A stretch of 64,000 nt of DNA from Methylococcales bacterium (GCA_040079795.1 JBEBJQ010000005.1:28977-92976); one strand, 5' to 3'. Shown: positions 2,370 through 60,855, counted from the first letter of the stretch. The notes: generated from the sequence alone by a model not told the origin. Translations and numbers: made by a program.

Positions 2370-3409
2370 GGGGATTGTACTTTATCTAAAATATGAATGG
2401 CTTGCGATGCCTGCATAACCAAGGCATAGCTAACATTTTTAAAAACCCGGTATACCATTAAACTACCGGCCATTTCGTCGGGGAGTATAACGGCGGTGTC
2501 TTTTTCTTCAGCGTAAGGATCTGCAAGTAGTTTACCACGTTGGTAAATATCCAGGACATGTCCCACCACCAAACCTTCCTCCGTGCCTTTATTAAGTACC
2601 ACGGTATTATATTGACCGATTTGTGATACACCGTTTAAAACACTAATAATGCTGCCATTAACCGGTTTTTCTGGTGGGTGGGGGAAATAGTTGAGGGTTA
2701 CTTCGCTAGCGGTATTGGGCATCAAGCGGTCACCGGTGCGAACTTCACTATTGGCTTTATTAATTAATAGCGTCGCAGGATCACCTTGTTTTTGCAGTGT
2801 CGTATCGGCTATAAATTCGGCTTCATAGCCTAAAATTTCTTTTGACTCAGGGTCAGCATATGCCTGACCTTTACGGTAAACGGTGTAGTTTAAACCAGGC
2901 GGTTCGGTAATCGCGCGAACATAGATCCGGTCGCCGGCGCCTGTAATCAGATGTTCGTTTGCAAAACTCAGTACATAAGGCGCAACATTCAACTCATCTT
3001 CAGTTACCACTTTAGGGGAAGATAAAAATTGATCAATGGCGTTGACGGGCAATAATTTAATGGCTTCTACCAGGGGGGTTTCACGGATTTGAGGACTCAG
3101 TTTTTCATATCTGACCGCATTGCGGTTACGGTTGGCAACCCGGATTTGAGGTTTACCGTTAACCATTGAAAACACTAAAACATCACCGGGATAAATGAAG
3201 TTAGGGTTCTTGGCGTTTGGGTTGTTTTGCCACAAACGCGGCCATTGTGCGGGTTTTTTAAGAAATTTACTGGCAATATTCCACAGCGTATCACCTTCAG
3301 CAACTTGATATTGATTAGGATGTGCAGGGTTAAGGTCAATTTCAGCAGCGGTTGCAGTGATGCTAAAAACAAGCGGGATAAGCCATCCCAGGGCTGCGCG
3401 TAATACCAT
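2366..3409 (-). CDS. LysM peptidoglycan-binding protein (TsaP-like position next to dprA/def)
   Basis: 347-aa ORF with a signal peptide and a LysM motif (YQVAEGDTLWNIASKFLKKPAQWPRLWQNNPNAKNPNFIYPGDVLV). The neighbourhood between def and dprA is conserved. Confidence 0.75.
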   Translation of the reverse strand: MVLRAALGWLIPLVFSITATAAEIDLNPAHPNQYQVAEGDTLWNIASKFLKKPAQWPRLWQNNPNAKNPNFIYPGDVLVFSMVNGKPQIRVANRNRNAVRYEKLSPQIRETPLVEAIKLLPVNAIDQFLSSPKVVTEDELNVAPYVLSFANEHLITGAGDRIYVRAITEPPGLNYTVYRKGQAYADPESKEILGYEAEFIADTTLQKQGDPATLLINKANSEVRTGDRLMPNTASEVTLNYFPHPPEKPVNGSIISVLNGVSQIGQYNTVVLNKGTEEGLVVGHVLDIYQRGKLLADPYAEEKDTAVILPDEMAGSLMVYRVFKNVSYALVMQASQAIHILDKVQSP

Positions 3410-38425: not shown

Positions 38426-41400
38426 CTAAAACCATTTACCGGGTGGATTCTTTAACAATGCGGTCATTTCTGCCGCCGGTAATGGTTTGGTGATCAGATA
38501 GCCTTGAATCTCATCACACAGGAGTTGTTGTAAAAGTGCAAAATGCGCCTGGGTTTCCACACCTTCTGCGACCACTTGCATATTCATGCTATGCGTCATG
38601 GAAATCATGGTATTGACTAGGCTTTTATCACTCTCCTCATCAATCATATTGGCAATAAAGGCGCGGTCTATTTTTATGGTATCAATGGGCAGTTTTTTTA
38701 AATAACTGAGCGATGAATATCCCGTTCCGAAATCATCAAGTGCGATTTTAATACCCCGGCAATGGATTCTATTTAAAGTGTTAATGGCAGCATCAATATC
38801 TTTTATTAAACTGGTTTCAGTAATTTCTATCTCTAAGTACCGGGGCGGTAATTCATACTCGTCTAATATATTTAAAATTTGTTGCGGCAAGTCTTTGTCG
38901 AGCAATTGTTGTGAAGAGACATTAATTGCAATTTTAATGTCTTTGATACCCCGTTTAATCCATTCTTTAGCTTGGGCGCAGGCTTCTCGAATAACCCAAT
39001 TGCCAATAGCGGTGATATATCCGCGTTGTTCTGCAAAATCGATAAAGGCAACAGGCTGTAAAAGCCCTTTGTGTGGATGTTTCCAACGAATGAGGGCTTC
39101 AACACCGCTAATTTTACCGGTTGCAAGCGTAATTTTGGGTTGATAATGCAACACCCATTCTTGATTGTCTATGGCCCGCCGAATATCAACTTCCAATTGC
39201 ATTTGGGTTTGCGATAACGCTTGCATATCCGAATTGTAATATTGAAAGTTATTAAGCCCGGGTAACTGCTTGGCGTACTGTTTGGCAGTTAAAGCGTTCT
39301 GGATCAGTTCATCAGGCGTATTGGCGTCATATGGATACAACCCAATGCCTAAATTACAGGTAATGAATATTTTTTGTTCATTAACTTCTATGGGCATCGA
39401 TAAGGTGTCAAAAATCCGTTTGATAATCCAGGTTGCTGACTGTTTGGACTTTAAATCAGATAATAAAATACCGAACTCATCTGCCCCGAAACGCGAAAGT
39501 AAAATATCATCGGCTTTACCATTTAATAGGGTTATTCCATCGGTATCACGCAACGCCCCAGCTAAACGGTCCGCCAGGCGTTTTAATAAAATATCACCGC
39601 CTGCACGGCCTAAAGAGGTATTCAGCTGATTAAACAGAGCGACATCAATGGTTAATACGGCCGCAATGTAGTCATAACGATGCCCTCGGGATATGGCTTG
39701 GGCAATGCGGTCATAAAAGAGCGAATGATTGGGTAAACCGGTTAAACCATCGTAATATTGGGATTGTTGTAATTCATAGGAAAAGGTAGAGGCAATGTTT
39801 TCCAAGGTTTTAATTTTAAGGTGCAGTCGATTAATTTCCGCTTGGGCTTCCAGTCCGCTGTTATGAAGGATTTGTTCTGAATGATGGGGAGGCAATTCAG
39901 GCTTAATCAATGCGGCAGGGGATTCGTGCGCCTCAATTTGCTGCTCATGCTCGGGGTTCCAACGAATGACCTGGTTACGTCCGGACTGTTTGGCAACATA
40001 CAAGGCGTTATCGGCCTGATCATTTAATTCAGCAGCGTCAACCGCATGATCAAAAATTGAAGCCACCCCCAAGCTGGCTTTTACATTGGGGCCGGGCGTG
40101 CCGTAAACTTTAATGGAGTCGTCGTGGAGCCGTAAACGAATACGTTCAGCCACCGAAATGGCCTCGTCGATTGAGAGGCCAGGCAGAACCACACAAAATT
40201 CCTCTCCGCCATAACGTCCGACCAAATCAATTTTACGGGTATTCGATTGTAAAATATCAGCAAACAGTTTAATGACATCGTCTCCGGTGCCATGGCCATA
40301 AACATCATTGACCCGTTTAAAATGGTCTATGTCAGCCATGATGCAGGATAGCTCAGCACCATTTTGTTTGGCTTTATTAAACTCAAGGTTAAAAGCTTTA
40401 TAAAATCCACGTCGGTTTAAACAGCCAGTCAAAGGATCCCGTGTCGCCAGATAATGCAGTTCTTTATTGCGCTCTTTAGCTTCTTTTTCCTTGATCGTTA
40501 ATTGGGTATTGATATCCGATAACAAAGCATTTTTTTCTTCCAGCTCAGTGATATCATCAAAGGTCACTAAAACACCTTGATATTCGTTTTTATCATTAAA
40601 AATTGTTGCGCTGTTAACGGCAAATTTAATGATTTTATCGGAAGGCAATTCTAGCTTTAAAAGTTTACTGTGGATTTCTTCGTTGTTCTGTTGGGTAATC
40701 GACCAGGGATATACCGGGTTTAGTTGTTCATCCAGATTAAATTTCCAGTTTAGTGATGAGGCTTTAGATCCTAACAACGATTGTGCGGATTTTCCGGTTT
40801 TTTCTGCAAAGGCTTTGTTAGCTAGTACAATTTGCTCGTCCTGATCCAGGATTAATACCCCTTCAGCTAAAGTATCAAAAGCAGAGCTGACCCTACCGGG
40901 AATAACCGCTGCTGGATCCAGTTGTTTAAGGGTTTTTAACATAAAAATAAAAAATGCAAAAAAACCGACGACGATTACAAAAAATATTAATTTATAAATA
41001 CTGCTATTGAGTAGCTTTGGAAAAACGTCGCTATCCAGGGGGGTAAATTTAATTTCAATTGTTCCCCACAGTTTGCCTTTTTCTAATAACGGTACAATTA
41101 AGTTGGTCGCCGTTGAGCGCTGTTCTTTATAATCACCCCACTCTTTGGCATGCTTACCGATTTCCAGGATAAGCGTTTGATCAATGCTCCTGACACCCGC
41201 AGACACAATCATCGGATTTCTTTTTACGATTTCTTTCAAGGTAACATTAATCGCATTTTTATTTAAACTCGCCAACGCGGTAAATTGAATGGCTAACGCT
41301 TCACTGATCGCTTGTCTAACCTTTAACTCCGTGTGGCGCTCACTGGGTGTAAAATCAAACAAATCCGCAGCTAACAGTAAGCTGGTCGTCAATAATACCA

Positions 41401-41461
41401 GGGCAAAACTTATTTTTAATGCCGGCAGAATAAAGCTAATCGTTTTACTAATGGGCTTCAT
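38426..41461 (-). CDS. membrane-bound sensor with PAS, active GGDEF, degenerate GGDEF and EAL domains
   Basis: Two TM segments flank a ~130-aa periplasmic region. GGEEF is preceded by an RxxD I-site (RKIDLVGRYGGEEF). A second GGDEF-like domain has GADEF. EAL motifs are present (EALIRW, DDFGTGYSSLSYL). The start is 37 nt after the giant gene's stop. Confidence 0.9.
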   Translation of the reverse strand: MKPISKTISFILPALKISFALVLLTTSLLLAADLFDFTPSERHTELKVRQAISEALAIQFTALASLNKNAINVTLKEIVKRNPMIVSAGVRSIDQTLILEIGKHAKEWGDYKEQRSTATNLIVPLLEKGKLWGTIEIKFTPLDSDVFPKLLNSSIYKLIFFVIVVGFFAFFIFMLKTLKQLDPAAVIPGRVSSAFDTLAEGVLILDQDEQIVLANKAFAEKTGKSAQSLLGSKASSLNWKFNLDEQLNPVYPWSITQQNNEEIHSKLLKLELPSDKIIKFAVNSATIFNDKNEYQGVLVTFDDITELEEKNALLSDINTQLTIKEKEAKERNKELHYLATRDPLTGCLNRRGFYKAFNLEFNKAKQNGAELSCIMADIDHFKRVNDVYGHGTGDDVIKLFADILQSNTRKIDLVGRYGGEEFCVVLPGLSIDEAISVAERIRLRLHDDSIKVYGTPGPNVKASLGVASIFDHAVDAAELNDQADNALYVAKQSGRNQVIRWNPEHEQQIEAHESPAALIKPELPPHHSEQILHNSGLEAQAEINRLHLKIKTLENIASTFSYELQQSQYYDGLTGLPNHSLFYDRIAQAISRGHRYDYIAAVLTIDVALFNQLNTSLGRAGGDILLKRLADRLAGALRDTDGITLLNGKADDILLSRFGADEFGILLSDLKSKQSATWIIKRIFDTLSMPIEVNEQKIFITCNLGIGLYPYDANTPDELIQNALTAKQYAKQLPGLNNFQYYNSDMQALSQTQMQLEVDIRRAIDNQEWVLHYQPKITLATGKISGVEALIRWKHPHKGLLQPVAFIDFAEQRGYITAIGNWVIREACAQAKEWIKRGIKDIKIAINVSSQQLLDKDLPQQILNILDEYELPPRYLEIEITETSLIKDIDAAINTLNRIHCRGIKIALDDFGTGYSSLSYLKKLPIDTIKIDRAFIANMIDEESDKSLVNTMISMTHSMNMQVVAEGVETQAHFALLQQLLCDEIQGYLITKPLPAAEMTALLKNPPGKWF

Positions 41462-41498: not shown

Positions 41499-44400
41499 TT
41501 ATTCATCAGTAACATTGGCAAACATTTGTTCCACTTTATCGTCTTGAGTGTCATAAGCTTCAGCTTGCTTACCCGATTTAAGGGATTTTGACGCTTTATT
41601 AGACTTTACTACAATAGGCAGCGGATCGAAACCTTTTAATAAGGGTATTGAGGGTAATAAGCTGGCTAATAAGGCGCCGCCTCTGAGTATCCAACTGACA
41701 AAACCCGCGGTTAAGGTGACTGTCGAAAAAATCATGACTTCAAGGTTTTCAGTTGTTTGCTCAGTATGGTTTTGTTCTATTGTTTCACGCATTGCCGCTA
41801 ATTTTTGCCAGAGGGCTTGTTCTTCGCTTGCCGTAAAGAGCGTTTCCAAATCAACATTAAACTCATTTTCTTGGTTGTCCATTACATGGCTGAGGGTGAT
41901 GTTCTGGAGCGTTTCCTTGAATGAAATAATTTGCGGTTTTTTTAATGCAAGGGCATCGTCTTCAAGAATGTCTTTGAGGCTATGGCGTGTTGTTGCGGCT
42001 TGGTCATCAAATACAGGGGTGTTTTCAACAACTATATTGGTGTTAATAAGGTTTGCAATAAACTTATCCAAGCTATTGTTGAAGGCCAAAGCGCTAGAGG
42101 AACCATCAGGTTCTGAATGCCCATTCAGTTTAATATTGGTAAAAGCTTGATTTGGTTCTGAATAAGCCGGGTTTTGTGGTAATTGCGTTAATATTAAAAG
42201 CGGGTTGTTTAAATTATTTTCAACTACAGCAGGTTGGATTAAAGTCGCTTGAACGATAGCCGTCGGTTGAGTCGTATTCACGACTGGCAAGCTATTGGGT
42301 GTAGTCGTTTCTTTGATTGGTGTGTTAATGGGTGTATCTGAAACTTCAAAGAGCCTGCTACTGCTCATGACACTTTTAGTAAGGCCCGCTTTGTCAGTAT
42401 AAAAAATTTGGACACTGATTTTACTGCCAATATCTTGGTCAGACAGGACGTAGCTGGAATTCGTAGCATCTATAACCGCTACCCCGTTTCTAAACCATTG
42501 ATAGCCGCTAACATGAATGTTTTCTATGTTGGTAATACCCAAAGTGTCTATGTTGAGTATTTGATTAACTTGCATCGAACCGATAATCACGGGTGCGCTA
42601 ACAGGGATTGTTGGGGTGCCAATAATTATGGCGGTATCCTCACTGCTTTTACTTTCAGGGGTTCCGTGAGCGTCGGTATAACTTGCTACCACGCGAATAA
42701 CGTTGTTCACATCGGATAATCCCAATACATAGCTATTGCCGTTTGCACCTGGAATATCCACCCCGTTGCGTTGCCATTGATAATGAATGGCACCCAACCC
42801 ATCGGCATCGGTTAGGCTGTTACCGGCTATGAGGGTTTGGCCTTGAGACGCAGTACCGGTAATGGTGACTGTCCCGAAAGGCGCATCGTTAATATTGCTG
42901 ACTGGCGCAGTTAATGTGCTATTTACGCTTTCTGGGTTGCCAGAACCATCAATGTAACTGGCTTTTACGCTGATCTGTTGACCAACATCAGCATCTCCTA
43001 AAGTGTAAGTCTTGCCGTTAGCACCATTAATAATGGCGTTGTTACGAAACCATTGATAGCTAAATTCCCCTAAGCCATTGTCGTCGCTAATATCACTGGT
43101 ATCTACAGTGAGCGTACCATCTTCTGTCACGATGCCCATAATCACCGGAAGACCTAACGAGGTATGGTTGCTTGGTGTTTCAAGCAAGTTCTCCACCTTC
43201 ACTGTAAAGTTTAAACTAGCGCTGTTATTTTTACTATCGGTAGCAGTTAGGGTCACTTGGTAGACATTATCAGTATTAGCATCCTGCGGGTTTTCAAAGT
43301 CACGCGCTGCCATGCTGACCACCCCGGTTGCGGGGCTGACGCTGAACAGGCCGGCATCAGCGCCGCTTAAAGTGTACACCACCGTCCCAACCGGGCTGCC
43401 GGTCAAGCTTGGGGTAGGGCTGGTAAAGGCGGTATTTTCATTAATACTGACATTGCTTAAGCCACTTAAGTTTAAGGTAGCACTTTCGGCAATGTTCAAT
43501 ACCTGTACGCTAAAACTTAAGCTGGTGCTGTTATTGTCGCTGTCGGTAACGGTCAGGGTCACTTGATAGCTATTATTGTTGTCGCTATCCTCAGGGTTTT
43601 CAAAGTCACGCGCTGCCATGCTGACCACCCCGGTTGCGGGGCTGACGCTGAACAGGCCGGCATCAGCGCCGCTTAAAGTGTACACCACCGTCCCAACCGG
43701 GCTGCCGGTCAAGCTTGGGGTAGGGCTGGTAAAGGCGGTATTTTCATTAATACTGACATTGCTTAAGCCACTTAAGCTTAAGGCCGCGCTTTCGGCCGTA
43801 TTGTTTATTTGAATGGCAAGCGTTTGGGTCGCCACACCACCATTACCGTCATTTACTTGTATGGTGACATCATAAATGTTGTCATGATTAAAATCACCAG
43901 GAGTTTCGTAATCAGGGGGGGACGTAAAACTGAGTACCCCGGAATTAGGATCAATACTGAATAACCCTTGATCATCGCCGCCATAAAGGCTGTACACCAG
44001 TTTTTGTGCAGGCAGATCGATATCTGTAGCAGTCACAGTAGTTACTATGCCGATGTTTTCCGCCAAACTGATTGAGGCTGTACTTCCTCCACCGTTACTA
44101 ATGATCAATGGTGCATCATTGCTTGCAATAACGGTCAGACCCGCACTATCTGTATGGTGGGAAAACGCGGTACTGCCGCCATTACTGGAGGTGCTGGCAA
44201 AGCTACCATTACTGCCGGTGCTTAAATCCCATGCGCGAAAATCGAGTGCATTAGCCAGTGTTCCATTCCAGTTTGCATCCGGCTGAAAGTAAATGCGGGT
44301 GTTATTATCGGCAGCTAATAAAAGTGCATTGCTGCTGCTGAGAATACCAGTTGGATTCCAGTTGCTGCCATTATCGATTGAATACCACCAGCTACCGTGG

Positions 44401-47400
44401 CTAGTATCAACCGACCGGATTGCTATACCCAATTGTGCACCTGTATCGGGATCAACAACATTGTCGAGTTGCCCGGCTGGTAATGTAAAGTCAACCAAAT
44501 CTTCAACCCGTGTGCCCACTGTACCGACTGGTATACCTGAACCTTCATTCATTGCTGTAAGCACTGGATCCGCTGAAGTATTAAGGATTGGCGCATCATT
44601 CACTGCTGTAATCGAAATGCTACCGGATAATGTGGCGCTTATGCCGCCATCACCGTCTGTCAAATAGCCTTCCAACACGCGGGCAGTCGATGACGGGGCG
44701 TTTGAGGTGTTCTCGTAGGTTACATTTCTGGCTATGTCTTGAACTATCGCCAAACTGGCGTTGCTATTAAACGTTACAACTAAGGGCGTATAACCCGTTA
44801 CCGGTCCGTTAAAGCTTGCCACTACGATGCCGTTATAAAGAATATCGCTGCCGCTAACATCGACCTGATTGGTATGGTGACCTTCATTTCTGACCGTTAA
44901 TCGATCTTCAGGCAAGCCATTTGCAGAAATAGTAATGACCAATTGACCCGTATCAAAATCCGCTGAATCAATATCGGTTATTAGCGCTCCAGAGGCTAAT
45001 AGAAACGGACCATCGTTTTCAGGAACAGTTGGATTACCTGAAACAAAAGTGATGCTCGGCGCATCATTTTGAGGGGTAACTGTAATCGTGACCGTGACTA
45101 CTTGAGACCATAATAAACCGTCACCGGCTATATAGCTGAAGGTATCGGTGCCATTAAAATTAGCGGTTGGCGTATAAACAATATTGCCGCCCGTGGTGAA
45201 GTTAAAGACACTGTAATGGGAAGGGAAGTTAACCAGCGCGGCGGTCAAGGCAGTCCCTTCAATATCCATATCGTTTGCGAGCACACCGGGGGCTGCGATA
45301 GTCAGGGTGCCGTCTTCTGCTACTGTATAGCTGTCTGCTGTTGCTACAGGTGCGTCATTCATTGCACTGATGATAATAGGCGCGCTGTCGCTAGTAGCGG
45401 AATAAGCGGTACTGCCGCCATTTATTGAAGCGTCGGCTAGCGTGCCATTACTACCAAAGCCCTGGTCCCAGGCACGAAAGGTAATGGCATCGCTTATACT
45501 GCCGCTGTAGTTAGCATTTGCTTGAAAATACAAACGGGTAACCGAATCGGCATTTAATAACAGCGCTGACGTATCGCTTACGCTGCCCACCGTATTCCAG
45601 GACGACCCGTTATCTGTGCTATAGAACCAGATACCATTGCTGTTGTTGGCTCCAGTCAAGGCAATGCCTAATCCAGAAAGCGCATCAGCATCTGTGACAT
45701 TGTCTAGTTGTCCGCCTGGCGTTGCAAAATCAACCAATGTCGACACCAGGGTTCCTGCTGCACCGCTGGGTGAGGCATTATCTTCAGCGATTGAGTTTAG
45801 CGCAGGGCTTTTAGACATATCCAGCACAGGCGCATCATTAACTGTTGTGACCGAGATTGCAGAATTATCGGTACCGGTGCTAAATGCTGTAGTGCCGCCA
45901 TTACTGCTGGTGTCAACTTTGGTTCCTTCAGTGCCTGCGGTTTGATCCCAAAAGCGGTAGCTAAGTGAAGCGGATGTGGCAGTTAAGCTGTCCGGTACAA
46001 AGCGCACCCGATCGGTTTCTTTTAACAGTAAAGCGGAATTACTGCTGACTGAACCCACGGCATACCATTGAGCTCCGTTATCCAGGGAGTATTCCCAATA
46101 ACCATTGCCATCGTTAGTTGAAATGAGCGCAATGCCGATTTGATCGGCTGGATCTAAATCTTGATAGGCATTTATGCTAATAAAGCTACCATGACTAATA
46201 AACGATTTAACCGTCTCACCCGCGTTGGACGTTTGATCTTCGGTAATGGCTGTTAAGCTGTAACCTTGCGGCGCAGCCAGAGGCGCGTCATTAATATTGG
46301 TCACCGTGATGCTGGCAGTATCTGTTGCCATACTAAAAGCGCTTGTGCCGCCATTTGCCGAGGCGTTACCCAAGTTCCCGCTTATCCCCACACTCAGATC
46401 CCAGGCGTGGTAGGTAAAACTAACGGTTTCCCCTTGTGCCTGGTCAGGATGGTAACGTATTAAATCAGTTGCGCCGAGCAACCGGGCTGAGCTTTCGCTT
46501 ACCGCCCCGATCCAAGCCCAGTTACTTCCGCCGTCAATGGAATATTCCCAATAGCCGACCGTACCCGTGCTTACATCCGTAATGGCAATACCTTGCAGCG
46601 CGCCGCTATCAACATCACTGATGGAGTTACCCAAGAAGGATGCAACTGTTTGTCCGGGATTAGCAATATTGTCTTCAGTAATGGTTGTTAACGTTGGTGC
46701 TATGGGTGAGAGCACGGGTGCATCATTGACAGACGTAATATTGACAATGCTGCTGCCGTTGCTACTCGCCGGACCGCCAGTGCCTTGTGCGCCACTGTTG
46801 TTGTCATTAATAATCCAGTTAATTTGCACACTGGCTGGTGGTGTACTGCTATTATTGCTGTAGGCAATCTGCTGCATCGCCTGGTTTACCAAGATATTGG
46901 TCGCACTTGCATTGAATGTAAATGTCAAAGTGCCTCCGCTGTTGGTTGTGACAGCACCAATCGTGCTAGCACCCACTACTAAGGCATTGCCTTGGGTCAG
47001 CGTACCCAGAGAGCCGCTGGCGTTGAACACATCCTGCGCGTTCACTCCGTTTGAGCGAGCGAGTGTGAGCGTAGCACCATTAAAGTTGTCCGCTGCCGTT
47101 AATTCTGGATCTGTAATTGTCACATCACTGTCCAGTAAGACTGCTGCACCCCCTTGGGTATAAGTTGGAGTACCATCGAGGTTGCTGAATATCGGCGCAT
47201 TATTGGCAACTCCGGTTCCGGTTAAGTCCACTTCGCCGGTGGCGGTATTGCTGATGCCTCCGTCTCCATCAGTGACCACAACGGAGATTGTGCGTATGCC
47301 TAACGTGGGCGTAACTGAAGTCGTACCGAAGGTGATAGACTGGTAGACTGCCTGCACCTTAGCAACTTGCGCGTTGGCATTGAAGTTCACCGAGAGGAGT

Positions 47401-50400
47401 GTGCCGTTCGAGCCACCGGACCATGTACCTACCGTGACACCATCGACCAACACATTCGAGCCAGATAGAGAGACACCGCCGATTCCGAGTAACAGCAGAA
47501 AGTCTGTGTTTTCGCCAGAGCTTATAGTGGCCGTGAGCGAACCACCGTTGAAGTCGGGACTGTCAGGGTCGGTGAGCGTCACCACGCCCGTGAATGGATT
47601 TGCCCAGTTACTCACCGTCGCGAAGGCAGAGCCACCATCGGTAAGCATAGGTGCGTCATTCACAGCTGTCACCGTGATTGCTGTGCTGGCGGTCTGGCTA
47701 ACAAGCCGCCCCACATTCGGTGCAGACAGTAAAGGTGTCGTTGTCGAAAATGTGTCCGGGCCGGAATAGCTGGCGTTAAGGCCTGCACCACCGGTATCCT
47801 GCGCATAGTGCAGTTCAATGCTGTGCTGGCCAGCAGTGAGTGTTGCGGTGTTTGAACTACTGCCGAACCAAGCTAACAGCACTTGGGTGCCATCGACGAA
47901 CAGGGTGGCCGCATCATCGGCAGCTACCGTGAATGTGTAAGTACCGGCCGTGGTGACATTCAGAATACCAGAGTAGATCACACCAAAAGTGGTGGTGCTG
48001 CCAGTCAAGGTATTAGCAAGGCTGGGCGCACTTAAATTCGTAGCCACACCAGTCATGCCGCCCGTGACCGAAATCAGGTTGGGGTTGGAGCCTGTGGGTG
48101 CGCCGTCCTGGAACCGGTAGTCAAATGTGCCTGCGGCTAAACTGCCGCCGATGCCGGTGTTCAGGCCGTCCGAAGTCACCATTGTGAGTGTAACCGCGCC
48201 ATTTGAGTTGGTCGCACCGGTGTAGGTCGGCTTCGCAGCGCTGGCCAGGTAGGCATTCAAATCGGTCAAGGTACCCGTGAGTATCAACGTTGAAGTGCCC
48301 GATCCGGTCACGTTCACCGCCCCGCCGCTGCTAGCGGATAAGGTTCCGCTACTGACCGTCAACTCGGTGCGTAACGTGCTGCTGCCAGCATCTGGGTCGG
48401 TGATGGAAAGGCCAGCGATGGCTGTCGTGCTGTCTTCGTTGAACGTCAACGTGGCCGGTACAGTGTTTACAGGCAAAATGTTGACCGCTAAAACAGTTAT
48501 GGGGGTAGTATTTGTAGGTGTTAGGGAGCTATCGTTTGCCAAAGCGGCAACTTCACCTGCGGAGAGAACCCGATTATAAATACGTGCGTCGTCAATTTTA
48601 CCGTTAAAATCAAAGGTTGTACCGCCGTTTCCATGCCTACCGATGAAGCTGTCTATCCCCAATGTGTAGTGTATTGAATCGGTAGTCGTTATTGAGCCTA
48701 CTAAAGTGCCATCAAGGTATAGCGCAGTCTTATCGCCGGTATCATCGAAGCTGAAAGCCACATGATGCCAACCAGTCCCGGCTAAAAGAGTGTTGTAAGT
48801 GGTGCCTATCCAGGTGCTACCATTATAAAACCCTCCAATAAGGCCACCGCTCCCATCCAGCCTAATCAATACGTTGTCACCCAGGGAAATTACATCAGCT
48901 CCGCCAGCACTGGCAGTATTGAGGTTGACCCATGCGGACAAGGTTACATTGGTTGGGCTGCCAAAAAAACCGGGGGTTTGGATATAAGCATTACCACCAA
49001 GACTTAAAACATTGCCGCGGGTGGCATCATTGAGCGCGGTAGCGCCATCGACAGTACCAGGGTAAGCCGCCGCTGGACTGCTGTCTGTTCCTAATGCGCT
49101 GGTGTTTTCGAAGGCATAACGTCCTTTCAGGCTTGTATCGATATTCAGGCTATACAAGGTAGAATCGAGCGTACTCAAGGTCAGAGTTGCAATACCATTA
49201 AAATTGTTGGTAGGTGTAAAATCCAATCCATTCAGAGCATTATTCAGGTCGGAGACTGTCCCGCTAAAAGTCATGGTACTGTCAGCAGCCCCACTGCCGC
49301 TGGTGAAGGATAAGCCGCTAACGCTAGCCAGCGCCAGTGTTCCGTTGCTAACAGAGAGGGTGACCTCTAAGGGGCTGCTTCCGGCATTAGCGTCATTTAC
49401 CGATAGTTGATTACCATTTGCAGACGAAAAAATGAGCGATGAGTTATAACTGGTAGTCTGGGCACCGGGTGTCGTATTACTTGGTGTGCTATTGCTAGCC
49501 ATTGCCGATAGGGATATATTCCGTGTTGCAATAGAACTATTAGCTAAGCCATCGTTAACGAAAAATGATAGGGTGCGTGTCGCCAAACTGGGATTGCTGG
49601 AAGAATTGAAATATGCAATGCTACGTAACGCACTCTGGTAATTGGCCACCGTGGCGCTGCCACTGAGCGTCAATACCCCGGTGCTGGCATTCCAACTGCC
49701 AGTAATACCATTTTGATTGGTAAAAGCCAGTGTGTCTTGACCGTTAACATAGCCTGAAGAAATTGACACAGTAGCACTAGCCATATGGGTGCTGTCTACA
49801 TCGCTTAGAGTAAGTGCATTATCGACTGCCGTAGCCGGGTCGTTATGTGTATAACCCATTGCACTGCCGGTGGTGCTGACGATGGGAGTATCGTTGACCG
49901 CCGTGATGGTGATATTTACGGGCGCCTGTGGCGAGTTTGACGCCAAACTTGCGACTTCGGAAACATCGAGCGCACGGTTGTAAAGCACAACTCCATCAAT
50001 TTCTCCATTGGCATTCAGAAATCGCGTCGGATCGAGATCTGATCGCGCACCGAGGTATACATTACCTACTGGATCAATGCTGTCACTGCCCGTGGCTAAT
50101 GAACCTAGCAGCCCTCCATCCACATAGACTTGCGTACCGATCCCGGCTGTTACGGTCATTGTGTAAAGATGCCATTGTCCGTCGCCGATGAGGGTGCTGA
50201 CATCCGTATAAATCTGTCCACTGGTGTCATTGGAATCCCACACTGTGGTGACCAGATTATTTACTGGGGTGGAACCAATGTAACTGGATTCAGTAAGAGC
50301 CACCTGGATGGTATTGGGAGAATTCGGAATAGCGCCGTGGCTGTATAAATATTGCAACCCTGTGCCGCTGTTATCATCTACTTTGAAATATAACGCCAGT

Positions 50401-58785: not shown

Positions 58786-60552
58786 TTAAGGCCACCATGA
58801 CCATACCCACAGTCTAAACCAGTCTACCAATTCATGCGTCCAAATCCACAGAATCGGCTTGCGACCGGCATTAATTTTAGCGACCCCAACCATGCCCGGA
58901 CGTAATAACTCAGTAGGATTTTGCAAACTGGCTTCAACCCGAAAAACATTATCACCAGACTCTACTTTTGCCAAAGTCGTGATTTTTTGGATTGTTAAAG
59001 GTAAACGCTGGTCAGGCAAGCTGGAGAGCGATAGAAGTCCTGTTTCTCCAGATTGTATATAAGCAATGAGCCGTTCACTAACCTTCAGAATAATTCGGTA
59101 ACCGTCCAACGGAGCAATTTTAAAGAGTTTCTGCCCGCGTTCTACCGGTGCACCCAGTAACTGACTGAGATCTCCTTCTATCACCACGCCATCAAATGGC
59201 GCGACAATAGTGGTGCGTTGTAATTGTTCCTGGACTAATTGCAGCTGTGCTTCAAGTTGTTGCAATTTAGCGCGGATGACACTGACATCCACCAGCTCAT
59301 TATTCGCCCTTGCTTCACGGTATTCGCGTAAAGCTTGTTGTTGCTGGCTGACCAATTTGGAATTTTCTAACTGTAAATCGGCATCATCCATGACTGCCAT
59401 ACTTGTGCCTTTGGTTACGGTATCACCGGCACGGACTGAGGCAGTTAAAATAAATCCTTCAATAGGTGCGGCTACTACCCGCTGTATTTTACCTTCCAAT
59501 ACCGCATCTGCATGTACTCTGAAATCCCCCTTAAGCAGGCTAGCTGTGATTAAGCAAGCAATTATGCATAATGCCGTTAATCTTATCCCTATATTACGGA
59601 GGCTAAATAGACTGTTGAATTGTTGGTTAATGCGCGCACCAACCTGCTCCAATAGGGACTTTTCAGTAGCGTGTTTTAGGTACAGATAAGGGCCTAATAG
59701 CGCCAAAGCCTGTTCTAAAAGCCTTACTTGTTCTGCTAAAAAGGGCGTAGACGCATCGCGTTCGAGGGTAAGAACGGCAAAAACGGATTTTTGATAGGCC
59801 ATTGGCAGTGTACAGATGCTACCGGCACTGTATTGTTTAGCCAGCTCTGTATGTGCGCGATTAATATACCGGGGAGGCGTATTGAGCGGAGGATAGGTAA
59901 TAATCATATCCTGGTCAACAGCTTCGTCCATGGCATCAGCGATTGCGCGCATCAAATTGGCGCGATTATCAAATTTTGCGCTGTTAGATAAAGCAACAAT
60001 GTCGACCTGCTGCCGTTTTAACTCACCAATCGTAACCCGCCCACATTGAAATTGTCTGGTCAATTCAGTGATTAGGGCAATCAAGCTTTCCTGGTAAGAT
60101 GTTTCGTCCAGGCAAATGGCAAGCAATTTGACGGTAGTGGCGTAAAATTCTTTGGGTAATAATTCACCTTGTGGCGTTGTGGCAAGTTCAAACCAGTGTT
60201 TACCCTGTTCCAGGCTAAGAAAGAGTTGTTGTTGTTTTTGCGCGGACTGCGCAGTGGTTTTTAATGCGATAACGCCGATTAATTGCTTGTCAAAAAAGAG
60301 CGGGGAAGCTAGGTAATCAAACGCTGGTTCAAGCGTTAAGGTAGCTGTCGTTGGGTTAACGATATTATCACCAGTTTTGGCTGCAATACAGGCAATTGCC
60401 AATAATATGTTGATATCCTGATGATCCTTTGGCCATTGCGCGACAGGTTGCAAGGTTTGGGAGTTTGGCTGAACGATTAAGAATAGCGCACTTCGACACT
60501 CTGTAATAATTTTACATTGAATATCAAGCCAATTCTGAGAAAAACCATTCAA
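58786..60552 (-). CDS. GAF-domain(s) - TM - HlyD-family adaptor protein
   Basis: Cytoplasmic ~310 aa of GAF-like sequence, one TM (LTALCIIACLITASLL), then a membrane-fusion-protein core (VVAAPIEGFILTASVRAGDTVTKGTSMAVMDD...TIVAPFDGVVIEGD). TTG start with AAAAGGA upstream. Confidence 0.75.
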   Translation of the reverse strand: MNGFSQNWLDIQCKIITECRSALFLIVQPNSQTLQPVAQWPKDHQDINILLAIACIAAKTGDNIVNPTTATLTLEPAFDYLASPLFFDKQLIGVIALKTTAQSAQKQQQLFLSLEQGKHWFELATTPQGELLPKEFYATTVKLLAICLDETSYQESLIALITELTRQFQCGRVTIGELKRQQVDIVALSNSAKFDNRANLMRAIADAMDEAVDQDMIITYPPLNTPPRYINRAHTELAKQYSAGSICTLPMAYQKSVFAVLTLERDASTPFLAEQVRLLEQALALLGPYLYLKHATEKSLLEQVGARINQQFNSLFSLRNIGIRLTALCIIACLITASLLKGDFRVHADAVLEGKIQRVVAAPIEGFILTASVRAGDTVTKGTSMAVMDDADLQLENSKLVSQQQQALREYREARANNELVDVSVIRAKLQQLEAQLQLVQEQLQRTTIVAPFDGVVIEGDLSQLLGAPVERGQKLFKIAPLDGYRIILKVSERLIAYIQSGETGLLSLSSLPDQRLPLTIQKITTLAKVESGDNVFRVEASLQNPTELLRPGMVGVAKINAGRKPILWIWTHELVDWFRLWVWSWWP

Positions 60553-60820: not shown

Positions 60821-60855
60821 AAAAAAAGGCCGGAGTGTCTCCGGCCTTTTTATCT
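60821..60855. terminator. bidirectional rho-independent terminator downstream of htpG
   Basis: A7-GGCCGGAG-tgt-CTCCGGCC-TTTTTAT. Confidence 0.8.

Follow-up and report, generated by a model that had tools for sequence, protein, structure and literature searches.

Giant adhesins exported by type I secretion (LapA/LapBCE with LapG/LapD; RTX proteins), the accessory Sec systems (SecA2 with or without SecY2), the exporters of bacteriocins and of ribosomally synthesized and post-translationally modified peptides (RiPPs), and the tripartite pumps MacAB-TolC, EmrAB-TolC and AcrAB-TolC are the described systems closest to the locus analysed here. The locus lies in a stretch of 64,000 nt from a Methylococcales bacterium (GCA_040079795.1, JBEBJQ010000005.1:28977-92976), the whole of which is called the window below. 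It comprises the gene for a giant adhesin-like protein of 3388 amino acids (aa) and, directly upstream on the same strand, a cassette that encodes three periplasmic adaptors, the middle one fused to an M50 protease, and a SecA-like ATPase. Based on sequence comparisons and structural models, we favour on balance the reading that the giant protein is the cargo of a dedicated exporter encoded by this cassette. The exporter would be leader-dependent, driven by the SecA-like protein, adaptor-coupled and probably TolC-coupled, a description to which we give the same modest preference.

Type I adhesins resemble the present case in their giant, Cys-poor cadherin/Ig-type cargo, in their adaptors and in the adjacent proteins of cyclic di-GMP (c-di-GMP) signalling, and in a terminal module as the plausible means of keeping the protein on the cell, a role proposed for the C-terminal module (C-module) here. 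In contrast to these systems, the locus has no ABC transporter, no RTX repeat and no C-terminal type I signal, and its conserved signal is N-terminal. It has a SecA-derived ATPase, an M50 protease fused to one adaptor, and three adaptors instead of one. LapA is retained by an N-terminal folded plug, whereas the candidate in the giant protein is a C-terminal hydrophobic module. Adaptors of the HlyD/MacA type imply a TolC-type duct and export in one step, as in type I secretion. With accessory Sec the locus shares a specialised second SecA paralogue encoded beside a giant adhesin gene, but the host is Gram-negative, SecY2 and Asp proteins are missing, the SecA-like protein stops after the first scaffold helix and scores below all SecA2 cut-offs, no hydrophobic h-region is present in the leader, and export would be adaptor-coupled. 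The export of RiPPs and bacteriocins (peptidase-containing ABC transporters, PCAT; PqqD-like RiPP recognition elements, RRE; the daptide HExxH protease, YydH/LiaK) is alike in the short N-terminal leader, in the PqqD-like domain beside a membrane M50 protease, and in adaptors of the bacteriocin-exporter type. Here, however, the cargo has 1,000 to more than 3,000 residues instead of being a peptide, there is no ABC/C39 domain, and the motor is SecA-like. The adaptors of tripartite efflux agree with those of the cassette in fold (MacA, MexA, AcrA, EmrA) and in RND_mfp sequence, but the inner-membrane partner is not of the ABC, RND or MFS kind, and the substrate would be a giant protein. Finally, the proteins collected under NCBIfam NF012209 (LEPR-XLL) and Pfam DUF4347 have a matching basic stretch plus LEPRxL(L/F)S motif and the same DUF4347 domain, but the model NF012209 gives no match to the subtype of the giant protein, and both families are catalogued without an assigned function or export route.

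The cassette is like type I and tripartite systems in its adaptor architecture, like RiPP/PCAT systems in its leader logic, and like accessory Sec in its pairing of SecA with a giant adhesin; by their defining tests, it falls outside type I, RiPP/PCAT and accessory Sec systems alike. We file it conservatively among the adaptor/TolC-type exporters. That it represents a previously undescribed type of Gram-negative secretion system, i.e. one with leader selection by a PqqD-like domain, a SecY-independent SecA-like motor, M50 processing, one-step export through three adaptors and TolC, and anchoring or release by the C-module, is put forward tentatively, at slightly under even confidence. No description of the cassette was found in the searchable full text, which leaves most papers in subscription journals outside its coverage, so that the absence of a description is not proof. 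The matches obtained dealt with Tce1/PA0256, with type I secretion in Chlorochromatium and with a 'SecA-like ATPase' of actinobacteria that is unrelated, and the cassette appears in none of them.

The giant protein is encoded by an uninterrupted open reading frame (ORF) of 3388 codons (10.2 kb) with an ATG start (Table 1). An identical product is deposited as MEQ1635602.1, a 'DUF4347 domain-containing protein' of a Methylococcales metagenome-assembled genome (MAG), where its contig measures 96.8 kb. The Pfam modules found in it are DUF4347, Cadherin_4/Big_9/Cadherin_5/Cadherin, Laminin_G_3 (two stretches) and PA14, and NCBIfam additionally matches tandem-95 and ZirU-type repeats. The motif NDAP was counted nine times, a regular expression for GGxGxD gave no match in the protein, and there is a single Cys among the 3388 residues. 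An earlier reading of the sequence alone (the sequence-only reading) had described one 10.2-kb ORF built from extracellular-type modules, with NDAP-bounded and YQWxRNG repeats, two LamG-like modules, a PA14-like module and no GGxGxD; the ORF check, the motif counts and the Pfam matches agree with it on all of these points. A cell-surface, adhesin-like protein is the best explanation of this predicted architecture. The single Cys and the lack of a standard signal make the cargo look like a substrate for export in the unfolded state. Within the repeat region, a cadherin-type unit of 306 nt (102 aa) is duplicated in tandem at 43221-43796 (Tandem Repeats Finder, 1.9 copies, 91% identity), which, judged from the sequence, is a recent internal expansion.

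The M50 fusion has more than 3395 relatives in the database, and nearly all of the 120 best matches listed are 715 aa long. When one genome per species was scanned, relatives were found in at least 520 species, and the best 80 loci, all from different species, were examined. The carriers include members of the Gammaproteobacteria (Methylococcales, Methylophagaceae, Neptuniibacter, Halioxenophilus), Betaproteobacteria (Accumulibacter), Alphaproteobacteria (Bradyrhizobium, Rhodobacter flavimaris, Stellaceae) and Deltaproteobacteria (Desulfuromusa, Syntrophaceae, Haliangium) as well as a MAG of the Omnitrophota. Among them are the cultured Methylomonas sp. TEB, Halioxenophilus aromaticivorans KU68F and Neptuniibacter sp. 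QD57_21. Searches by tblastn with the window proteins recovered the order GAF-adaptor, M50-adaptor, SecA-like gene, adaptor in virtually all of the 80 loci where the contig allows, with the GAF-adaptor as the first cassette gene. The SecA-like gene was found in 74 of the 80 loci, and it is followed by an adaptor gene in 65. Sequence of 1 kb or more is available downstream of the cassette in 57 loci, of which 35 encode a DUF4347 or leader-bearing protein, mostly as the gene right after the adaptor; in three loci (L011, L025, L026) the giant gene lies about 4 kb upstream on the other strand. Of the 28 loci in which the cassette is flanked by 5 kb or more to either side, 26 have next to it a DUF4347/leader protein or some other ORF of 600 aa or more. 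The locus L001, which was looked up independently from the cargo side, has the same gene order. The upstream genes are a conserved cassette that adjoins giant proteins in most of the 80 loci.

The sequence-only reading had proposed checking whether homologues keep the same neighbours, and it had regarded a dedicated pathway formed by the neighbouring genes as plausible. Retention of the four-gene order in virtually all loci, with a leader-bearing giant following or flanking it in most of those that are long enough, supports both ideas, with the qualification that the c-di-GMP enzyme is kept downstream only in L003, the nearest relative where it is visible. It is conceivable that the giant is not exported at all, being cytoplasmic, a pseudogene-like relic or unexpressed, and that its neighbourhood is coincidental. 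This is exceedingly improbable in view of the intact 10.2-kb ORF with extracellular-type domains throughout and of the conservation of both termini and of synteny across classes of Proteobacteria; moreover, giant ORFs are rare, yet they accompany nearly all of the well-sampled cassettes (26/28).

Variants of the cassette are informative about its core. In four loci (L054, L073, L084, L085) the SecA-like gene is missing and the adaptor(s) and the M50-adaptor are kept, and a LEPR or DUF4347 giant nevertheless follows; L084 (4421-11179) is from a Pseudomonas MAG and has an added sulfotransferase gene, and L085 (4181-10820) is from Neptunomonas. These variants suggest that the invariant core consists of the M50-adaptor and the leader. 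Both the leader and the C-module are also retained by two short cargo paralogues, one in L003 (1133 aa) and one in L005 (896 aa). In eight loci (L043, L046, L048, L060, L064, L069, L071, L080), a different giant, of 576 to more than 2,600 aa within the locus, ends just before the cassette. The giants of L048 and L080 contain RTX repeats and a matrixin-like domain (L048 also Calx-beta), most of the eight end in HExxH, none has the C-terminal hydrophobic module, and their N-termini lie outside the examined DNA.

Other genes accompany the cassette in subsets of the loci. A SapC-family gene stands beside it in six loci (L043, L048, L060, L066, L071, L077), four of which are among the eight with an upstream giant. 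Two tandem HDOD genes lie directly upstream of the GAF-adaptor in 25 loci, mostly of Methylococcales (e.g. L003 1398-3174, L007 4891-6587, L008 6428-8180); they are absent from the window, where htpG occupies that place. The locus L003 (JAURXZ010000039.1) is labelled 'Bacteroidia bacterium', but its proteins are 60-65% identical to those of the window and its cargo leader is essentially that of the Methylobacter locus L029, and on these sequence grounds the contig is probably mis-binned.

The giant ORFs of 34 of the 80 cassette loci open with 13-14 mostly basic residues, followed by the pattern [ILV][LF]EE[LM]E[PAE]R[QRL]LFS[GA]G[ILV]EG, which has four invariant positions (Glu, Arg, Leu, Ser). 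The leader common to these loci can be written as a basic N-region of constant length (13-14 aa) and ILEELE[PA]RQLFSGGIEG, and VLEELEARQLFSAGIEG of the giant protein conforms to the pattern and is the sole copy of the motif within the window. A search with residues 1-280 found DUF4347 proteins as homologues, at least 38 of the 106 listed opening with a basic stretch and LE[PQ]RxL[FL]. The NCBIfam model NF012209 (LEPR-XLL), an N-terminal model of 24 positions with a cut-off of 17 bits and no function assigned in NCBIfam, matched neither the subtype of the giant protein, LEELEARQLFSAG, nor four leaders of the ILEELE[PA]RQLFSGG type. One cassette-linked leader, LLEAVEPRLLFSAG, scored 17.3 bits, and distant C-module proteins scored 17.6-29.6 bits (P0373, P0312 and P0351 are above the cut-off). 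Judged by the continuity of the motif among the cassette-linked leaders, the leader is probably a divergent subtype of the uncharacterised LEPR-XLL motif.

Within the first 100 residues, no 19-residue window reaches a Kyte-Doolittle value of 1.6, in line with the earlier statement that the N-terminus has no hydrophobic h-region of the Sec or twin-arginine translocation (Tat) type. The wider statement that no recognisable signal of any standard type is present stands as far as standard signals are concerned, but the N-terminus does resemble a recognisable, though uncharacterised, non-standard motif class (NF012209, which matches relatives but not this subtype). A Tat interpretation (S/T-R-R-x-F-L-K before an h-region) of the N-terminal 'RRF' was rejected: no h-region follows it, and it is not conserved among relatives. 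In the assemblies of L001, L013, L021 and L078, the giant cargo genes are split into several ORFs, with frameshifts or assembly errors as the likely cause, and the database matches to the N-terminus are therefore all short 'partial' proteins.

The other end of the giant protein carries a second signature. A pair of hydrophobic segments lies 79 to 45 residues before the C-terminus, with Arg-Gly-Gly between the two; their Kyte-Doolittle values, determined for the last 80 residues, are 1.86 and 2.01. The tail of 35 aa after FDPLPIVV contains 6 K/R and 7 D/E. Hydropathy and composition thus reproduce the hydrophobic stretches, split by Arg and followed by a Lys-rich and then acidic tail, that had been noted before. 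A word-indexed search with the last 275 residues found only four fragments (P0001-P0004), including one of Methyloglobulus morosus. In a profile search of 1.84 billion representatives, Ig repeats dominated the matches, the profile including the Ig repeats of two fragment sequences; the total of 11,416 matches is meaningless for the module, and module-bearing proteins were taken from the top 150 matches by inspection and regular expression. Among these 150, the same C-module ends at least 20 giant proteins of clearly different lineages. Its consensus is x-S/T-x-G-x-x-x-G-F/Y-V-x-W-x-L-R-x-G-x-L-L-x-S-x-L-S-x-x-P-x-W-x-x-x-D-P-L-P-I-L, followed by a charged spacer and usually by V/L-E-x-L/M-F. 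The Arg, the Pro and DPxP are (almost) invariant, and the conserved Gly, Pro and Arg sit inside the hydrophobic stretch. The motif hydrophobic-Glu-x-hydrophobic-Phe near the C-terminus of most module-bearing proteins (VEQMF, AERLF, VDEMF, VERLF) could, from its sequence, be a docking site. The C-module has no match in Pfam or NCBIfam and no meaningful match in the PDB; PDB profile searches with the module and with the PqqD-like region of the M50 fusion returned noise only (Sir2, E ~1; XaxA, E 0.016). From its sequence we propose that the module serves as a membrane anchor, a retention element or a second signal. The earlier likening of the C-terminus to a tail anchor was right about a hydrophobic module, which is conserved, but a tail anchor is just one of its possible roles.

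All C-module proteins with an intact N-terminus also carry the LEPR motif. Nine C-module proteins without it begin inside repeats, i.e. they are fragments. Among 149 giant Ig-repeat proteins, 16 have both signatures, 9 only the C-module, 5 only the N-terminal motif, and 119 neither (odds ratio 42, Fisher p = 2.4e-11), and at least two of the five with only the N-terminal motif have variant modules that the regular expression missed. The giant protein belongs to a class defined by the two signatures, i.e. the LEPR-type leader and the C-terminal hydrophobic/DPLPI module. The tabulation of LExRxLFSA N-termini and hydrophobic C-termini in homologues that the sequence-only reading had proposed therefore finds both conserved, and in the same proteins.

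Next to these signatures, features of the standard routes were searched for. The 19 larger ORFs scanned in the window gave no match to ABC_tran, ABC_membrane or OEP, and the other large ORFs of the window are housekeeping genes (DnaE, BamA, AspS and similar). The giant protein has no match to HemolysinCabind (PF00353), and its last 80 residues, with the hydrophobic pair and the conserved DPLPI, do not correspond to the uncleaved, non-hydrophobic C-terminal signal of type I substrates. Retention of the LapA type is not indicated, the N-terminus consisting of the leader and DUF4347 and the GGDEF-EAL neighbour scoring 165 bits against the LapD cut-off of 1020; no LapG-like gene was seen in the domain scans of the larger window ORFs. 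No autotransporter or two-partner secretion (TPS) domain was matched by Pfam in the giant protein. The Omp85 protein of the window was rejected as a TPS partner, being a five-POTRA BamA that lies 9 kb away among housekeeping genes. Sortase- or exosortase-type sorting signals (LPXTG, PEP-CTERM, GlyGly-CTERM and others) gave no NCBIfam or Pfam match at E <= 10 in the last 107 residues. Sorting signals consist of a motif, a transmembrane (TM) helix and a basic cluster, whereas the order in the giant protein is hydrophobic segment, motif, charged tail. The window scans found no SecY-like, SecY2 or accessory Sec gene. On the positive side, the M50 fusion has the HExxH and NxxPxxxxDG motifs of site-2 proteases, and the 499-aa protein, the 588-aa protein and the C-terminus of the fusion qualify as adaptors. 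The absence of autotransporter, TPS and RTX features that had been claimed earlier is thereby upheld by Pfam, NCBIfam and regular expressions. So is the view that a protein of this kind needs export by a route that is not evident, given that it has no standard signal and that the scanned large ORFs include neither an ABC exporter nor TolC.

These results bear on the possibility that an ABC/adaptor/TolC system encoded elsewhere exports the giant C-terminus first, as in classical type I secretion, and that the cassette exports or processes another substrate, such as a small leader-bearing peptide, or has a purely regulatory role towards the adhesin. Type I substrates are typically giant adhesins of this kind, with cadherin/Ig repeats and very few Cys. 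RTX repeats occur in some DUF4347 homologues (P0028, P0084, P0096, L087) and in giants beside some cassettes, and the M50 part is similar to RiPP-maturation proteases. We nevertheless regard this explanation, including its small-peptide version, as quite unlikely, given that the giant protein lacks GGxGxD and HemolysinCabind, that no ABC exporter is found among the scanned large ORFs of the window, and that the C-terminus, a conserved hydrophobic module with a charged tail, is unlike type I signals. No small-peptide gene is conserved beside the cassette, whereas leader-bearing giants are, and both the sequence of the leader and its spacing from the start codon are conserved, which one would not expect of a protein whose C-terminus exits first.

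The proposed motor comprises nucleotide-binding domain (NBD) 1, the preprotein-binding domain, NBD2 and the first scaffold helix of SecA, with intact Walker A (GEGKT) and DEAD motifs. Of the solved SecAs, which have about 780-840 aa, its alignment covers only the part from about residue 17 to about residue 615. The protein therefore stops behind the first long scaffold helix, and helical wing domain, two-helix finger and C-terminal tail are missing. Its score with the SecA model TIGR00963 is 584.5 bits (cut-off 800), with model positions 1-473 of 787 covered, and the SecA2 models TIGR03714, TIGR04221, TIGR04397 and NF012136 give 357-518 bits (cut-offs 725-1100). NCBI labels the protein 'preprotein translocase subunit SecA', despite scores below all SecA and SecA2 cut-offs.

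The unmistakable derivation of the motor from SecA, with the preprotein clamp kept, could also fit export in two steps. The SecA-like protein would then be an accessory, SecA2-like SecA that delivers the giant to the housekeeping SecYEG, the M50 protease would be a leader or signal-peptide peptidase, and the adaptors and TolC would move the periplasmic protein to the surface. Accessory SecA2 systems export giant serine-rich adhesins, and adaptors of the MacAB type, which the adaptor fold matches, can take periplasmic substrates. Against both the Sec delivery and the periplasmic step, each of which we consider unlikely, stand the leader, which has no hydrophobic h-region to open the SecY lateral gate, and the loss of the parts with which SecA contacts SecY, SecB and the ribosome (two-helix finger, helical wing domain, C-terminal tail). 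In addition, all SecA2 family cut-offs are missed, the window has no SecY2 or accessory Sec genes, and SecA-less cassettes still accompany leader-bearing giants. We therefore prefer a dedicated exporter with a SecA-like motor.

In the M50 fusion, H210-E211-x-x-H214 and N304..P307..D312-G313 are invariant among 19 homologues (49-75% identity), and these site-2 protease motifs make it probable that the protease is active. The Pfam score with Peptidase_M50 is 25.5, just below the cut-off of 27.2, and the daptide_HExxH model matches residues 19-414 (E 1.9e-40; 139 bits versus a cut-off of 300). PqqD (PF05402) matches the N-terminal segments (residues 44-101) of 10 of 10 fusion homologues at E <= 0.01 (best 6e-5). 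An AlphaFold (AF2) model of the fusion contains three strands followed by three helices at residues 24-97 and a helical membrane core, and its C-terminal part is matched by Foldseek to MacA, MexA, AcrA and EmrA (E down to 6e-11). The end of the fusion gene, with its stop codon, shares 8 nt (56622-56629) with the beginning of the SecA-like gene. An overlap of this kind, similar e.g. in L004, suggests translational coupling and a stoichiometric complex.

A protease of this kind might act on the other end of the giant. The protein, held in the inner membrane by its C-module, would be exported by another route, and the M50 protease would cut the C-module in a case of regulated intramembrane proteolysis, with the SecA-like ATPase extracting or unfolding the giant under the control of c-di-GMP and the GAF domains. 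Site-2 proteases cut helix-destabilised membrane segments. The Gly, Pro and Arg conserved inside the hydrophobic stretch of the C-module would suit such a cut, and neighbours of the GAF, GGDEF-EAL and HDOD types suggest that release is regulated in the manner of the Lap system. Yet the export route itself is left unexplained, and a protease alone would hardly call for three TolC-type adaptors. The ligand, to judge by the PqqD-like domain and by the likeness to RiPP leader peptidases, would be the N-terminal leader. Moreover, site-2 proteases usually cut N-in/C-out segments, while the Lys-rich tail suggests the opposite orientation. Both the release by the protease and the extraction by the ATPase are thus very unlikely as the whole function of the cassette, and we return to the reading in which it exports the giant.

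The remaining proteins of the locus agree with the list of same-strand neighbours given earlier (three HlyD-like proteins, a SecA-like protein and a c-di-GMP enzyme), as confirmed by Pfam and NCBIfam, with two refinements: a pirin gene lies inside the cassette, and the middle HlyD-like protein is the PqqD-like/M50/adaptor fusion. The GAF-adaptor scores 102 bits with TIGR01730, above the cut-off, and has a TM segment at about residues 320-344; from its domain composition we propose that it is a sensor and regulatory adaptor with cytoplasmic GAF domains. In the last adaptor, a hydrophobic segment at residues 12-34 forms an N-terminal signal or anchor. An ATG at 53379, 11 codons past the TTG, opens MVKVIFPFYMLVGIFSAATC, a signal-peptide-like or lipoprotein-like N-terminus, and is the probable start; the TTG-start product has no exact match in the protein collection. 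The pirin gene found no tblastn match in any of 82 related loci, and in most of these the SecA-like and last adaptor genes are about 10-300 nt apart; it is probably a lineage-specific insertion into the cassette and not part of the system. The GGDEF-EAL protein is a candidate c-di-GMP regulator, judged by its domains, and in L003 such a gene also follows the cargo gene (60% identity, the nearest relative where visible). A scan for promoters and terminators of the window gave counts close to those of shuffled sequence, except for the hairpin at 60823-60851, which is likely a bidirectional terminator that marks the upstream edge of the cassette transcription unit. The coordinates of all features are listed in Table 1.

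Table 1. Features of the giant protein, the upstream cassette and their surroundings (window positions; residues refer to the giant protein)
Feature	Position	Strand	Remarks
Leader, residues 1-33: MRKDRRFNSKP + VLEELEARQLFSAGIEG	51567..51665	-	Divergent LEPR-XLL-type motif; proposed recognition signal
Giant adhesin-like protein, proposed cargo	41499..51665	-	Single ORF; Pfam modules along whole length
DUF4347, residues 117-280, with Cys214 (sole Cys) and His171	50826..51317	-	Pfam E 1.3e-58
LamG-like module 1, residues ~367-574	49944..50567	-	Laminin_G_3, two stretches; position read from sequence
LamG-like module 2, residues ~849-1042	48540..49121	-	Best Laminin_G_3 stretch 890-1040
PA14-like module, residues ~1181-1306	47748..48125	-	PF07691 E 5.5e-10, residues 1221-1304
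Cadherin/Big_9 repeat region, NDAP-bounded, residues 1336-2930	42876..47660	-	Big_9/Cadherin_5/Cadherin/tandem-95 matches
Three YQWxRN Ig-like repeats, residues ~2837-3110	42336..43157	-	Regular expression at 2870, 2962, 3055; ZirU-family match
C-terminal module, residues 3281-3353: EEQALW helix, hydrophobic 3310-3327, RGG, hydrophobic 3331-3343, FDPLPIVV	41607..41825	-	
Charged tail, residues 3354-3388, Lys-rich then acidic, ends VEQMF	41502..41606	-	Composition and motif recurrence
GGDEF-EAL protein with PAS, 1011 aa, two N-terminal TM segments, 37 nt downstream of giant gene	38426..41461	-	EAL, GGDEF, PAS
HlyD/RND_mfp-type periplasmic adaptor, 499 aa from TTG	51913..53412	-	TIGR01730 119 vs 94.9 bits; HlyD_D23/HlyD_3
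Pirin-family gene between SecA-like gene and last adaptor	53714..54571	-	Pirin, Pirin_C
Truncated SecA-like ATPase, 663 aa, proposed motor	54638..56629	-	SecA_DEAD, SecA_PP_bind, P-loop_SecA
PqqD-like/M50/adaptor fusion, 715 aa	56622..58769	-	Peptidase_M50, HlyD_3, PqqD; proposed leader receptor, processing enzyme and conduit subunit
GAF-adaptor, 588 aa, two GAF domains, TM and periplasmic adaptor	58786..60552	-	GAF, GAF_3, HlyD_3, HlyD_D23
Symmetric hairpin, 13-bp perfect stem, 7 GC pairs, A5/T5 flanks	60823..60851	.	Between htpG and cassette

The DUF4347 domain of the giant protein matches PF14252 over its full length (1-164 of 164) with 197.9 bits against a cut-off of 24.6. In an alignment of 48 homologues, the Cys of YGC, which is the sole cysteine of the giant protein, is invariant and the His of SHG nearly so (at least 90%). 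The AF2 model of the domain has a predicted local distance difference test (pLDDT) value of 91, and Foldseek matched it to legumain, caspase-3, -7 and -8, the CHAT protease Csx29 and Pseudomonas aeruginosa Tce1 with probabilities of about 1 and modest TM-scores of 0.35-0.48. Tce1 is a type VI effector of P. aeruginosa that is identical to PA0256 and carries DUF4347 (PMC8262886), and a recent paper presents it as a putative cysteine protease whose dyad is like that of the TcdB cysteine protease domain (CPD) (PMC13323088). From the fold matches and the description of Tce1, DUF4347 is best read as a predicted cysteine protease domain of the clan CD kind (caspase/legumain/CPD-like), and it may be an autoprocessing or effector protease. 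Clan CD domains (the CPDs of MARTX and TcdB, legumain, caspases, Tce1) are like it in fold and in the conservation of Cys and His; the setting of DUF4347 here is the N-terminal side of a giant adhesin and not a toxin or a type VI effector.

A sequence of events can be proposed for the favoured exporter, in which each single step is less certain than the assignment of the giant as cargo, itself a matter of modest preference. The PqqD-like domain of the M50 fusion would bind the leader of about 30 residues of the unfolded cargo in the cytoplasm, by analogy with an RRE. The SecA-like ATPase, which keeps both nucleotide-binding domains and the preprotein clamp without the parts that engage SecY, would then thread the cargo, its N-terminus leading, into a channel that consists of the M50 membrane domain or is built around it. 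The three MacA/AcrA-like adaptors would form a sleeve that spans the periplasm up to an unlinked duct of the TolC family, so that export would occur in one step as in type I secretion, and the leader would be removed by the M50 protease. The C-module and the Lys-rich tail, the latter on the cytoplasmic side, would stop the transfer and tether the cargo, mirroring the N-terminal retention module of LapA; alternatively, the C-module might be cut later and the protein released. Export or release could be coupled to nucleotide second messengers by the GAF domains and the GGDEF-EAL protein, a part that the HDOD pairs would play in 25 loci. As a caspase/CPD-like protease, DUF4347 could autoprocess the giant or act at its distal tip.

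Several observations weigh against this reading and against its individual steps. All steps were derived from sequence, synteny and predicted structure, and the cytoplasmic placement of the PqqD-like domain is presumed. No protein-conducting channel is evident, with no SecY-like gene in the window, and protein conduction is not known for M50 proteases. A TolC-like gene lies 2-7 kb from the cassette in only six of the 80 loci. A conserved outer-membrane partner near the cassette was rejected on inspection of these six genes, which look like a shared housekeeping neighbourhood. The channel and the outer-membrane partner are the main gaps. The PqqD assignment of the fusion in the window falls below the threshold of 23.4 bits (22.2 for the isolated N-terminus, 18.8 for the whole protein), the region has no sequence match in the PDB, and the AF2 model of the fusion has a moderate pLDDT of 76. 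In two of the 28 well-flanked loci, L058 and L074, both of Accumulibacter, no giant gene is found near the cassette. Five distant DUF4347/LEPR proteins were traced from the cargo side: two have an M50-adaptor nearby (L084, L085), and three (L083, L087, L088) have no cassette within 10 kb, so that the link is strong for the subfamily but not universal for the domain. The RTX-containing giants beside some cassettes could use a classical type I system.

Giant proteins with LEPR-XLL and DUF4347 are common in environmental Proteobacteria, cyanobacteria and planctomycetes, and their exit route is unexplained in the searchable literature. If the proposal is true, ABC, RND and MFS proteins would be joined by another, fourth kind of energiser for envelope-spanning adaptor/TolC machines, the SecA-like ATPase would be the first SecA-derived motor outside the SecYEG pathway, and leader recognition of the RiPP style would be linked to protein secretion on the megadalton scale. 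The leader, the C-module and the cassette would then be three signatures by which such cargo and such systems can be predicted in genomes, and the M50-adaptor fusion, which serves as marker gene, has relatives in at least 520 species of Proteobacteria and some other phyla. The finding bears on the biology of biofilms and attachment in methanotrophs, Accumulibacter and marine bacteria.

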